Source of the DNA: Myxococcales bacterium
GTDB lineage: Bacteria; Myxococcota_C; UBA6777
Assembly: GCA_020632975.1 (NCBI GenBank)
Contig: JACKEL010000001.1
Span: 151,983 to 215,982, forward strand
Reading direction: 5' to 3'
DNA: 64,000 nucleotides
Numbering within the stretch: the first letter of the stretch is position 1; each line of letters starts with the position of its first letter. Under the pieces are notes generated by a model. That model saw only the letters and a list, made by a program, of their open reading frames with translations. It did not search any database and was not told the origin of the DNA. Shown piece by piece: positions 39,182 to 46,087 of the stretch. The translations under genes were made by a program, and so were the position numbers.

Positions 39182-40576
39182 ATGGTCCCGAAAGAACCTC
39201 AGTCCTCATGTGGAAAAGTCGTGGGCGTCCAAGGCGGCGTGGTGGATGCAACGTTTTCTGGATCATTGCCGCCTCTTCAGCACCTTCTCAAAGCGGGCGA
39301 ACAAGGCGAAGTCACGTTTGAGGTGACGGCCCATCTCGACGACCACACCGTGCGCGGTATCGCTCTCACCCCAACATGGGGGCTTGCGCGGGGAGATAAG
39401 GTCGAAGACACGGGTGGGCCTTTGCGTGTACCTGTTGGGCCACAACTTCTCGGGCGCGCCTTCGATCTCTTTGGAGAACCCATCGACAACAAAAGCCCTA
39501 TCCCTGCGGAGGTACCGAAAAGATCGATCCATCAACCTCCCAAGCCGCTTCATCAACGCATGACGCAGACAGAGATCTTCCGCACAGGCATCAAGATCAT
39601 CGATCTACTTTCACCGCTTGAAAAAGGCGGGAACACGGGTCTTTTCGGTGGTGCAGGCGTAGGAAAGACTGTATTGATCACAGAACTCATCCACAATGTC
39701 GTGGGGCGTTACCAAGGCGTGAGTTTGTTTTGTGGTGTGGGTGAGCGTTGTCGAGAAGCGGAAGAGCTTTATCGCGAGCTTGATGAGGCCGATGTGTTGA
39801 AAGACACCATCATGATCTTTGGCCAGATGCATGAGCCCCCAGGTGTACGGTTTCGCGTAGGACACGCAGCCCTCACCATGGCCGAGTACTTCCGCGATGA
39901 TGCGCACCAAGATGTCTTGTTACTGATCGACAATATCTTTCGTTTTGTGCAGTCAGGCGCGGAGGTTTCTGGCTTGATGGGAGAGTTGCCTTCTCGTGTG
40001 GGTTACCAACCATCACTCGCAACCGATATCGCCCAACTGGAGGAGCGGATCTGCAACACGGCGTCAGGCTCGATGACTTCTGTGCAAGCGGTGTATGTAC
40101 CTGCGGACGACTTTACCGATCCTTCGGCGGTTCATACATTTTCGCACCTCTCCACCTCCATCGTGCTCTCTCGGAAACGCTCAAGTGAAGGGCTTTATCC
40201 AGCGGTCGATCCTTTGCAGTCAGGTTCCAAGATGCTTACCGCAACGGTTGTAGGAGAGAGACACTACCGTGTCGCCCAAGAGGTACGCCGCACCCTTGCG
40301 ATCTACGAAGAACTCAAAGATATCATCGCGATGTTGGGGATGGTCGAGCTTTCACGAGAAGAACGCCAGACGGTGTACCGCGCACGTCGCCTCGAACGCT
40401 TTTTGACCCAACCTTTCGCAACCACCGAGGCTTTCACAGGTCAGCAAGGCCGTGCTGTTGAACTTGAGGATACCCTCGAAGGCTGCGAGCGCATCCTTGC
40501 GGATGCGTTCAATGATATCCCAGAACAGGCCCTTTATATGATCGGCAGCATCGCGGAGGCTCAGCAAAAAAGATGA
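39182..40576 (+). CDS. atpD: ATP synthase beta subunit (N-ATPase type operon)
   Basis: P-loop GGAGVGKT and DELSEED-like region. ATG 39182. The track ORF carries a spurious 84-aa upstream extension through the repeat region. Confidence 0.9.
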
Positions 40577-41019
40577 CCTCTCCATCTGCCAAGGCAAGCC
40601 CAACGAACCAAGCAACTTCTCCTACAACAAACGCGTCTGTGATGCGCTTTAAGCTGCTTTTGCCCACAGAGATCCTTATCGAGCAACCCATCCAAAAGAT
40701 CGTGGCAGAGTCCGCCCAAGGTTCCTTTTGCTTACTTCCACGCCATCGGGACTGGACAACAGCTTTGATCCCAGGTCTGCTCTCCTTTGTGGACCAAAAA
40801 GGCCAAGAAAGCTTTGTAGCAGTCGATGAGGGCATCCTTGTGAAGTGTGGCGATGAGGTCTTGGTCTCCACCCAACGCGCAACCACAGGCTTGGACCTTG
40901 GACAACTTCGCATGACAGTAGAAGAACAATTCTTACTCCGCGATGCCCACGAAGAACGCGCACGCAGTGTCCTGATGCGACTGGAAGCCCTTTTTATGCA
41001 ACGCTTTGCCAAGAAGTGA
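40573..41019 (+). CDS. atpC: ATP synthase epsilon subunit
   Basis: ATGA overlap with the atpD stop. The beta-sandwich segment [35 protein letters not shown] is epsilon-like. The N-terminal 23 aa are low-complexity, so the start could instead be the Met at aa 24. Confidence 0.7.
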
Positions 41020-41026
41020 GAGGCCC

Positions 41027-42763: not shown

Positions 42764-43543
42764 GTGAATATCGACTGGTTTACTGTTGGGGCGCAGATCG
42801 TCAACTTCTTGATCCTCATCGCCTTACTCAAACGCTTTCTCTATCAGCCTCTTTTGACCGCGATGGACAAACGAGAACAAACCATCGCTGCGCGGTGGGA
42901 AGAAGCCGAACATACCAAAAACGAAGCGCAGAGTTTGCTTGAGGAAAATGAGCGGCAGCGCAAAGAGTTACGCGATACCAAAGAAAGCTCGCTCACCAAG
43001 ATCCGCGAAGAAGCCGAGACCCAAAAACAGCACCTCCTCCAAGAGGTCCGTACAGACATCCAACAACGCAAAGAACAGTGGCGTAAGTCCCTTGAACGAG
43101 AACAAGAAGACTTTCTCCGCGACCTACAACGCCGCGTTGGACAAGAAACACTTGCGATCGCACGACGCGCTCTCCAAGATCTCGCAGACACCGAGCTTGA
43201 GCAGGCTGTGGCACGTACCTTTCTGCAAAAACTTCAGTCCCTCACCGCCGAAGAAAAGAAGACTCTTTCTGAAGCCATCCAAGACTCTGACTTACACATC
43301 ACGCTTCAAAGCAGCTTCCCGCTTGCTGAAGAACAAAAGCAGCAGATCGCAGAAGAACTCCACCAACTCGCCCAAGCCCAAGTGCAAGTCGAAACCCAAG
43401 AAGATCCCGATCTGTTGTGCGGTATCTTGCTCAAAGCCGAGCAATACCAGTTGTCTTGGCATCTTCGACAATATCTCGAAACCCTCTCCCAACGCTTTCT
43501 CGAAACCCTTTCGGATAGCAATCGTGAGGCCCAAGCGTCATGA
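42764..43543 (+). CDS. atpF: ATP synthase Fo subunit b (long, 259 aa)
   Basis: GTG 42764 with AAAGGAG at 6-nt spacing. Single N-terminal TM ([17 protein letters not shown]) followed by a long charged coiled coil. Confidence 0.7.
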
Positions 43544-45138
43544 CAGAACCCCTCACTCCTCCAGCAACCAACGAAACAGCCCAAGAGACGGACTTTTTGC
43601 GCCAACGCGTCTTGGACCCAGCACTCGCGATCTTACAAAGTTCACGTGAGGGCGTCGCACTGCGTCCGCAGCTCCGCGAAGTCGGGCGCATCAGAGAAGT
43701 ACAACGCGGCGTTGTGCGGATCACAGGACTCCCAGGCGCACGCATGGGAGAAGAGATCCACTTTGCGGATGGTTCACGGGGGATGGTGCTTCGTCTCACG
43801 CCTGAAGATATCGGGGTCGCGCTGATCGAAGAAACGGGCCAACTCCACGCAGGATTAGAAGCCTATCGAAGTGGCGAACTCGTCGATGTTCCCGTAGGAG
43901 ACGGCATATTGGGTCGCGTGGTCGATGCAACAGGCGTTCCTCTCGATGAGATGGGGCCTATCCGCGCAAGCCAACGCTATCCTCTCGAACGCCTCGCGCC
44001 TCCGATTATGCACCGCGCCCCCGTGCATCAGCCCCTACAAACGGGCATCAAAGTCATTGATGCGATGTTTCCCATCGGCCGAGGCCAACGAGAGCTGATC
44101 CTAGGAGACCGTCAGACGGGTAAAACCGCCATCGCGATCGACACCATCCTCAACCAACGCGACCAAGACGTCATCTGCATCTATTGCGCGATCGGACAAC
44201 GCAGCACTGCCGTGGCACGCGTCATCGAAACCCTCCGTCAATCGGGAGCGATGGGGTATAGCGTCGTGGTGGTAGCAAGCGGTGATGCCCCCGCAGGACT
44301 CCAATACATCACCCCTTATGCCGCCACGAGCATGGCCGAATACTTTATGGAACATGGCCGCGATGTCCTGATTATCTATGATGATCTCACCCGACACGCT
44401 CGATCTTACCGCGAACTCTCTCTGCTTTTGCGCCGCCCTCCCGCGCGCGAAGCCTTCCCTGGCGACATCTTCTACATCCACTCGCGACTGCTCGAACGTT
44501 CGACCCACTTGCGCAAAGAGTACGGTGGAGGTTCGCTCACAGCCCTTCCCATCGTCGAAACCGAAGCACAAAACCTCTCCGCTTACATCCCAACCAACCT
44601 CATCTCTATCGCGGACGGCCAGATCTATCTCTCGCCCGACCTCTTTCAAAAAGGGATGTTGCCCGCCGTCGAGATCGGACGCTCAGTGTCTCGGGTGGGT
44701 GGAAAGACCCAACTACCCGCATATCGTGCTGTCGTGGGGATGTTGCGCTTGACCTATACCCAGTTTGAAGAACTCGAATCCTTCTCGCGTTTTGGTGCGC
44801 GCCTCGATGAAACCAATCGACAAGTCCTTACACGTGGTCGCAGGATCCGCGAAGTCCTCAAGCAAAAACAATACGAAACACTCGCAGCAGCCGACCAGAT
44901 CGCGATCTTGCTTGCGCTGACCCAAGGACTGTTCGATACCCTTTCGCTCCCTCGCTTAGAAGAAGCCCAACGCGAAGTCAGAACCCATACAAGAAAACAA
45001 CTTCCCCTTCTCGTCGAAAAGATCGAGCGTGGCGAAAAGCTCACACAAGATGAGATCGAGCGATTTGTTGAGGTCCTTCAAAAGGTCCTACAGCTCGAAC
45101 AACAAGAGGATGGCGATGTCCACGCTCGAAGAGATTAA
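43540..45138 (+). CDS. atpA: ATP synthase alpha subunit
   Basis: P-loop [22 protein letters not shown] overlap with the atpF stop. Confidence 0.9.
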
Positions 45139-46087
45139 AAAGAAGCTCAACAACACCCAAGCCCTTCATACCATCGTCAAGACCATGAAGTCGCTTGCGG
45201 CTGTGAGCATCCGTCAATACGAACGCGCGGTCTCCTCGCTCCAAGACTACCACCGCACCTTGGAATTGAGCTTTCGCATCGTCTTGCGGCAACATGGGAT
45301 CGAAGCACTCACCCACCGCGACAAGCCCATCCACCTCATCGCTGTGGTCTTTGGCTCTGATCAAGGACTTTGTGGAACACTCAATGAAGTGATCGCCAAC
45401 CACGTCGAAAGCACCGTGCTCACGCAAGATGCGTCTCCCTTGCAACGACTTGCAGCCCAACAACCCAAACAGGATCTAAGCCAAGATCCCGATGGCGTCG
45501 AAGCCATCGAAAAGATCGTCAACTACGGTCCTTATCAAAGCCGCACCCTCTTTGGCGTAGGAGAACGCGCTGCGGTACAACTCGAAGACCGCGGGTGGAA
45601 CCTGCAACAAGTCTTTCCAGTTCCTGTTTCCATCGCGGGCGTCACGCCTGTCATGCAAGAATTGCTTTTTGCCCTCGAAGAAAAACGCCAGTCCCTTGAG
45701 CCCGTCCAGATCTTGCTTTTTCACAATCGCCCCGTTGATACCGCGAGTTTTACACCCGTCTGCACCCCTCTTTGGCCTGTTGATCAAGCATGGTTGGGAA
45801 CCCTCGAAAAGAAGCCTTGGCCCACTCGCCAGCTTCCGGGCTTCGATCTCCCATGGCGCACGCTCTTTGCGAGCTTGCTCCAACAGCATCTGTTTGTTTC
45901 GTTGTATCGATCTTGCGTAGAGTCCCTTGCGAGCGAGTTTGCAAGCCGCCTTGCTTCCATGCAGTCCGCAGAAAAAAACATCGAGCGATTACTCGACGAC
46001 CTTGGGCTATCGTTTCAACAACAACGCCAAGACGCCATCACCTCAGAACTCCTCGATATCGTCGCAGGTGCGGAAGCACTGCGCTAA
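45116..46087 (+). CDS. atpG: ATP synthase gamma subunit
   Basis: [38 protein letters not shown] is a typical gamma N-terminus. GAGGA lies 6 nt upstream of ATG 45116. The gene overlaps the atpA 3' end. Confidence 0.8.

Follow-up and report, generated by a model that had tools for sequence, protein, structure and literature searches.

An N-type ATPase operon in a Myxococcales genome

Which kind of rotary ATPase is encoded by the gene cluster at positions 39182-46087 (+) of a 64,000-nucleotide stretch of the Myxococcales contig JACKEL010000001.1 (assembly GCA_020632975.1), and which ion would it move, and in which direction? The whole stretch is called the window, and positions without a prefix refer to it. 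The open reading frame (ORF) map shows nine co-directional, uninterrupted ORFs in this interval, so that the bounds given in the original prediction, a reading of the bare sequence, were exact to the base. Family models identify the ORFs, in this order, as beta, epsilon, AtpQ, AtpR, a, c, b, alpha and gamma. The order atpD-C-Q-R-B-E-F-A-G read from the sequence was thus confirmed by the ORF map together with the NCBIfam and Pfam assignments.

The proteins were scored with the NCBIfam "alternate F1F0 ATPase" models, which carry curated cut-offs and correspond to the N-ATPase of Dibrova et al. 2010. All nine proteins exceeded the cut-offs (Table 1), and the canonical counterpart model, where one exists, scored lower. 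With family scores of 72 to 780 bits, chance is not an issue. AtpQ lies between epsilon and AtpR, AtpR bears conserved Arg in two of its three hydrophobic segments, and the c subunit carries a Glu in the middle of both helices (Glu30 and Glu63), as in most N-ATPases. The catalytic and ion-site motifs are intact: the Walker A motifs are preserved (GGAGVGKT in the AtpD translation), and the a subunit retains Arg164 within LAVR164LFGN.

Relatives were collected by scanning one genome per species. About 56 loci encode an alpha subunit 54-79% identical to that of the window, and wherever the flanks were long enough (about 50 loci) the order was beta-eps-Q-R-a-c-b-alpha-gamma. These N-order loci span Myxococcota, Planctomycetota, Cyanobacteria, Bacteroidota, Desulfobacterota, Chloroflexota, Verrucomicrobiota and others. 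Loci with an alpha subunit 48-53% identical have the canonical order a-c-b-delta-alpha-gamma-beta-eps. Neighbour-joining was applied to 81 alpha and 66 beta sequences, giving plain distance trees with no bootstrapping; in both, all N-order loci group with the window in a single clade from which every F-order locus is excluded. The phylogenetic placement of atpA and atpD that had been proposed as a check therefore puts the window in the N-order clade in both trees. A canonical atpIBEFHAGDC operon was considered and rejected, as beta and epsilon lead the window operon, atpH is absent, and the canonical-order loci are the more distant homologues.

The N-type call of the original prediction was thus borne out by every sequence-level membership test that was run, namely gene order, AtpQ, AtpR, family models, trees and the c subunit. 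We conclude that, judged from its sequence, the window operon is almost certainly a complete and intact N-type ("alternate F1F0") rotary ATPase operon in a Myxococcales genome.

Operon organization

The gene starts were refined by looking for Shine-Dalgarno (SD)-like sequences and by comparing the closest relative, a locus of a Myxococcota metagenome-assembled genome (MAG), here called L001, with identities of 89% for beta, 91% for c, 79% for alpha and 52% for b. The refined starts of the nine genes match the gene calls deposited for a public contig of nearly the same sequence, JACKEK010000005.1 (GCA_020633035.1). The start of atpC is ambiguous between 40573, which gives an ATGA overlap, and 40642, the GenBank call. 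Over the 19,999 positions of window 33540-53538, at the last of which it stops, JACKEK010000005.1 shows 29 single-base differences; an identical alpha protein was found in two NCBI MAGs labelled "Myxococcales bacterium".

ATGA overlaps occur at the beta/epsilon, R/a and b/alpha junctions and a 23-nt overlap at alpha/gamma, so that overlaps range from 4 to 23 nt, while the remaining junctions are gaps of 4-44 nt. Such tight packing is typical of a translationally coupled operon. An Rfam search over the whole window returned no family at the gathering threshold, and thus no riboswitch or leader in the 315-nt spacer upstream of the operon.

Table 1. Genes and sub-features of the N-type ATPase operon, with model scores in bits and curated cut-offs in brackets.
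Feature	Product	Coordinates	Strand	Family models	Remarks
atpD	N-type F1 beta, 464 aa	39182..40576	+	TIGR03305 alt_F1F0_F1_bet, 780.2 (752); canonical atpD model, 609.7	start matches L001 homologue and deposited call
atpC	epsilon, 148 aa from ATGA-overlapping ATG 40573 or 125 aa from ATG 40642	40573..41019	+	TIGR03166 alt_F1F0_F1_eps, 126.3 (100.1); PF02823	
atpQ	small membrane protein, "gene 1", 116 aa	41027..41377	+	TIGR02230 ATPase_gene1, 128.1 (46.7); PF09527, 50.1	GAGAGG 5' of ATG 41027
atpR	N-ATPase-specific membrane protein, 107 aa	41382..41705	+	TIGR03165, 72.6 (55.5); PF12966 AtpR, 83	two buried Arg
atpB	Fo/No a subunit, 234 aa	41702..42406	+	TIGR03306 altF1_A, 330.5 (302.1)	essential Arg164
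atpE	c subunit, 96 aa	42429..42719	+	TIGR03322 alt_F1F0_F0_C, 160.7 (130.85)	two-carboxylate site with full Na+-ligand set
atpF	long b subunit, 259 aa, fused to partial delta	42764..43543	+	TIGR03321 alt_F1F0_F0_B, 237.6 (224.7); PF00430	GTG start, AAGGAG upstream
within atpF	delta/OSCP-like C-terminal domain	43283..43492	+	PF00213; TIGR01145	
atpA	N-type F1 alpha, 532 aa	43540..45138	+	TIGR03324 alt_F1F0_F1_al, 775 (750.5)	
atpG	gamma, 323 aa	45116..46087	+	TIGR03323 alt_F1F0_F1_gam, 291.6 (282.35), matched in two stretches	AAGAGG 6 nt before start
within atpG	lineage-specific insertion of about 25-38 aa	45419..45532	+		not in L001

The b subunit carries part of delta

The original prediction described the operon as lacking a delta subunit. 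As far as a gene is concerned this holds, since neither BLAST, nor the profile search, nor inspection of the flanking genes disclosed an atpH in the 64 kb. When eight canonical delta subunits were compared with the window by BLAST, no match below an E-value of 0.03 was obtained. A profile hidden Markov model built by us from the canonical deltas of F-order loci and run against all six frames had a single match, the AtpF ORF, with an E-value of 6e-9.

The delta domain itself is only partly missing, as the C-terminus of AtpF carries a delta/OSCP domain. It matches PF00213 (OSCP) with 34.4 bits, above the cut-off of 22.3, over profile positions 100-170 of 172, and TIGR01145 over positions 99-170. 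The delta profile finds AtpF alone and PF00213 maps to its C-terminus, so that there is no atpH gene, but a stalk subunit in which b is fused to the C-terminal part of delta, with the N-terminal domain of delta missing. An N-ATPase b subunit with a delta-like C-terminus has already been described (PMC2881411; PMC11738941). A BLAST search for a second atp gene set within the window gave only the expected cross-hits between alpha and beta.

Ion-binding site of the c subunit

The c sequences of Ilyobacter tartaricus (1yce) and Fusobacterium nucleatum (3zk1) were verified against the PDB before alignment. The window c subunit has the helix-2 motif M-V-E-S-T-A-I-Y and reads G-E-G in helix 1, and it aligns with both references without a gap between helix 1 and the ANPF motif at the C-terminus. 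Its Glu30, Met61, Glu63, Ser64, Thr65 and Tyr68 pair with Glu32, Val63 (a backbone ligand), Glu65, Ser66, Thr67 and Tyr70 of 3zk1. The E-S-T-Y residues and the helix-1 Glu thus coincide exactly with the positions that bind the ion in 1yce and 3zk1, the outcome that the Na+ proposal called for. The helix-1 residue had earlier been given as Glu/Gln; it is Glu and not Gln, which makes the window c subunit one of the two-carboxylate type.

This site is common in the family. Glu combined with ESTAIY was found in 33 of the 50 N-type loci and is the commonest N-type motif, whereas the Thr is replaced by I, M, V, L or F in about one third of the loci. The helix-1 packing motif SxGxAxGxG is the commonest N-type pattern too; what it says of the ring size is a matter of speculation.

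The F. nucleatum enzyme, which has the ligand set of the window, translocates only Na+, and its helix-1 Glu is constitutively protonated (PMC3692424). According to the ProAD rule, a complete motif means Na+ (PMC11738941), and by this rule the window enzyme, with its complete motif, would be classed as Na+-specific. On these residues, the window N-ATPase probably pumps Na+.

AtpR, epsilon and gamma

The original prediction had also noted Arg residues in the transmembrane helices of the second small protein. Arg51 of AtpR was found in all 44 homologues taken from related loci and Arg81 in 38 of 41, and both residues sit midway along a hydrophobic segment. On sequence grounds, this pair fits the hallmark that Dibrova et al. 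gave. Both AtpR (41650-41705, …PPRSPSKPPETSEESV) and the a subunit (42360-42406, …QPPSPPSPPTSPTT) end in Pro/Ser-rich low-complexity tails, which lie outside the coverage of the family models and have similar counterparts in L001.

If translated from ATG 40573, epsilon would bear a 23-residue Ser/Thr/Pro-rich N-terminal extension (40573-40641, +). The epsilon of L001 has an analogous, longer extension with the tandem repeat SSTLPAQHTT (L001:5974-6110). The gamma insertion is absent from L001, and most homologous loci align at most 14 residues in its place.

Proposed role and alternatives

In the mechanism that we propose, the alpha3-beta3 head would hydrolyse ATP and thereby turn gamma-epsilon and the c ring against the a subunit with its Arg164, the head being held by the b-subunit stalk with its delta-like C-terminal domain. 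Each c subunit would offer Glu30, Glu63, Ser64, Thr65, Tyr68 and the backbone of residue 61 as ion ligands. AtpQ and AtpR, the latter with its two buried Arg, would probably assist in the assembly or the regulation of the c ring. Since the ligand set is that of the Na+-binding F. nucleatum ring, ATP-driven Na+ export as an auxiliary pump would be the most likely job of the enzyme; the preference for Na+ over H+ and for pumping over synthesis we infer by analogy. N-ATPases are nearly always second copies, and removing the N-ATPase operon from M. acetivorans left growth and ATP synthesis unaffected (PMC2881411). The N-type enzyme of A. halophytica is reported, as cited in PMC5376962 and PMC8949462, to be coupled to Na+ and to provide tolerance of salt. 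We assign a probability of roughly 0.6 to this reading as a whole, in which the enzyme exports Na+ at the expense of ATP and is auxiliary to a presumed housekeeping ATP synthase.

Several points weigh against it. A consensus scan of 38700-46400 found no promoter or terminator around the operon: promoter-like sites numbered 2 against 3.2 expected, with none upstream of atpD on the + strand, and terminator-like sites 12 against 9.6 expected. A literature search on the assembly and whole-genome shotgun accession, aimed at the habitat of the source MAG, gave no relevant paper. The remaining points concern the ion. Among the 1,807 N-type enzymes that ProAD lists in GTDB v202, Na+ is predicted for 914 and H+ for 893, about half (PMC11738941). 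Moreover, the N-type c17 ring of Burkholderia pseudomallei, the only N-type c-ring whose ion specificity has been measured on the purified ring, was H+-specific in NCD-4 assays, contrary to the sequence-based prediction of Na+ (PMC5376962).

An H+-pumping enzyme like that of B. pseudomallei, serving pH homeostasis or maintenance of the membrane potential, is the strongest rival. In its favour are the ProAD prediction of H+ for 893 N-ATPases, the purified ring, which was H+-selective despite its two-carboxylate site, and the fact that Na+-translocating ATPases can carry H+ at low Na+ (PMC2881411). What separates the two enzymes is the binding site. That of B. pseudomallei, E61-T62-M63-x-x-Y66, is without the Ser and Thr ligands (PMC5376962), whereas the window has the complete E-S-T-x-x-Y with the helix-1 Glu, the residues of the Na+-only F. 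nucleatum ring. We therefore regard H+ pumping as rather improbable.

Operation in reverse, as an ATP synthase driven by the Na+-motive force and serving the cell conditionally or as its main synthase, is less probable still and appears unlikely. For it speaks that the A. halophytica homologue was published as a 'Na+-dependent F1F0-ATP synthase', as listed among the references of PMC5376962, that synthase and pump roles are both discussed for the Synechococcus PCC 7002 copy (PMC6950573), and that in the Chloroflexota genus T78 the N-type enzyme is the sole rotary ATPase in 18 of 20 genomes, where it seems to serve as an H+-coupled synthase (PMC11738941). Against it stand the second-copy status of nearly all N-ATPases and the undiminished ATP synthesis of the M. 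acetivorans deletion. In addition, no Na+-cycle genes, such as those for Na+-pumping respiratory enzymes or decarboxylases, were found among the annotated neighbours in the window. That in this particular Myxococcales lineage the N-type enzyme makes ATP with Na+ as coupling ion, either reversibly or as the only synthase, is very unlikely; if it were so, the gamma insertion and the epsilon extension would be regulatory additions.

The least credible reading is that of an ordinary F-type housekeeping synthase whose genes have been reordered, or of a duplicate that is decaying and has lost its function. In its favour, the general F-type models are passed or approached by beta, alpha, a, b and c, and GenBank gives c, b and AtpR generic F0F1 names. 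The F-type version is refuted at the level of sequence, as the N-specific model outscores the general atp model for every subunit and AtpR is N-specific; the window also falls inside the N-order clade. The nine intact ORFs with conserved catalytic and ion-site residues and 52-91% identity to L001 indicate purifying selection rather than decay. Auxiliary Na+ export remains the reading that we favour.

Genomic context and mobility

The operon is preceded by a divergent gene for a TonB-dependent receptor (36701-38866, -) and followed by a convergent gene of the metallo-beta-lactamase fold (46110-47126, -). The second gene downstream (47132-47773, GNAT/YgjV-like) is 71% identical to the gene downstream of the L001 operon. 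The GC content of the operon is 0.543 and that of its third codon positions (GC3) 0.578, compared with 0.524±0.027 and 0.547±0.05 for 19 other genes of the window. No tRNA was found in a scan of the window, and no transposase or integrase gene was seen among the annotated neighbours of the operon.

The original prediction had called N-ATPases laterally mobile. For the family this is documented (PMC2881411), whereas the window copy has a host-like GC content, no tRNA or mobile-element marks and a neighbour in common with L001. Recent horizontal transfer of the window copy was therefore rejected, on account of its host-like GC and GC3 and of the downstream gene conserved in L001. The copy looks long resident in its lineage, as far as composition and neighbours tell.

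The rest of the window has the appearance of a typical Myxococcota neighbourhood. It contains an RND efflux pair (HlyD-like and AcrB), a PAS-GGDEF-EAL protein adjoining a PilZ protein, and a pair of Ser/Thr protein kinases, of which one, 1,150 aa long, matches TPR models weakly; these neighbours lie at 13556-18231 (+), 20844-24836, 48876-52328 (-) and 60508-62052 (-). A giant protein of 2,350 aa packed with WD40 beta-propellers is encoded at 25989-33041 (+). In L001, a 1,350-aa WD40-repeat protein (L001:29-4081, +) is encoded directly upstream of the N-ATPase operon, with no evident link to the ATPase. In every 2-kb bin of positions 1-64000 the + strand has a negative GC skew (-0.04 to -0.25), and its AT skew is mostly positive, regardless of gene orientation. 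As the cumulative skew falls monotonically, the whole window lies on one replichore and contains no origin or terminus.

Two related operons deviate in their gene content. Between atpB and atpE of L001 lies an ORF for 177 aa (L001:8349-8882, +) with a Cas12f1-like/TnpB TNB zinc-ribbon domain (PF07282, 70.6 bits), which looks like a truncated TnpB remnant inside the operon; it has no counterpart in the window, where the spacer between a and c is 22 nt. In the locus L058 (3093-9300) of an uncultured Rickettsiales MAG the order is beta-eps-a-c-b-alpha-gamma, with approximately 48-54% identity and the c motif ETSAIY. AtpQ and AtpR were undetected there, and this may be a divergent or reduced N-like operon.

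Annotation and significance

The operon is already known, both as a kind, N-ATPases having been defined in 2010, and as an annotated instance. In GenBank its alpha subunit is entered as 'alternate F1F0 ATPase, F1 subunit alpha', and ProAD lists 1,807 N-ATPases, as given above. The naming is inconsistent within this one operon, since AtpR appears as 'ATP synthase subunit I' and the b-delta fusion as 'F0F1 ATP synthase subunit delta'. Such names in public annotation could mislead operon-based classifiers. Beyond correct annotation, the finding has little significance. The questions to which it relates are those of the family, namely the Na+ or H+ coupling of the class with Glu and ESTxxY, the size of the c ring and the function of AtpQ and AtpR, and for these the window copy is no better or worse a handle than hundreds of others.

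Comparison with known systems

The c11 ring of F. nucleatum (3zk1/3zk2) has the same ion-site residues in register with those of the window at approximately 40% sequence identity. Residue 63 is Val in F. nucleatum and its partner in the window is Met, of which only the backbone is used. Unlike the window enzyme, that of F. nucleatum is an F-type synthase of the canonical kind, and its helix-1 packing motif is GxGxGxGxG, compared with SxGxAxGxG; the ring size of the window enzyme may differ for this reason.

The N-type ATPase of B. pseudomallei (c17; Schulz et al. 2017) shares with the window the operon type, the two-carboxylate c subunit and Arg164 of the a subunit, which is the essential residue in B. 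pseudomallei (PMC5376962). It differs in helix 2, with E-T-M-x-x-Y instead of E-S-T-x-x-Y, and in helix 1, with AxGxAxAxG instead of SxGxAxGxG, and these differences are the basis for predicting Na+ for the window enzyme.

The 'Na+-ATPase' operons of Aphanothece halophytica, Synechococcus PCC 7002 and Acaryochloris marina are, like that of the window, N-type with the Na+ motif, and the accounts given by PMC5376962, PMC6950573 and PMC8949462 report them as stimulated by Na+, induced by salt or protective against it. Their hosts are cyanobacteria and they frequently lie on plasmids, whereas the window copy lies among typical Myxococcales genes without marks of mobility.

The closest match is the N-ATPase family itself as described by Dibrova, Galperin and Mulkidjanian (2010), which has the same atpDCQRBEFAG order, AtpQ, an AtpR with two buried Arg, no atpH, a long AtpF with a delta-like C-terminus, Glu in both c helices with ESTxxY, and alpha and beta subunits in a separate clade. 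There is no essential difference between this family and the window operon, and the gamma insertion, the possible epsilon extension and the tails of AtpR and the a subunit are details of the window lineage.

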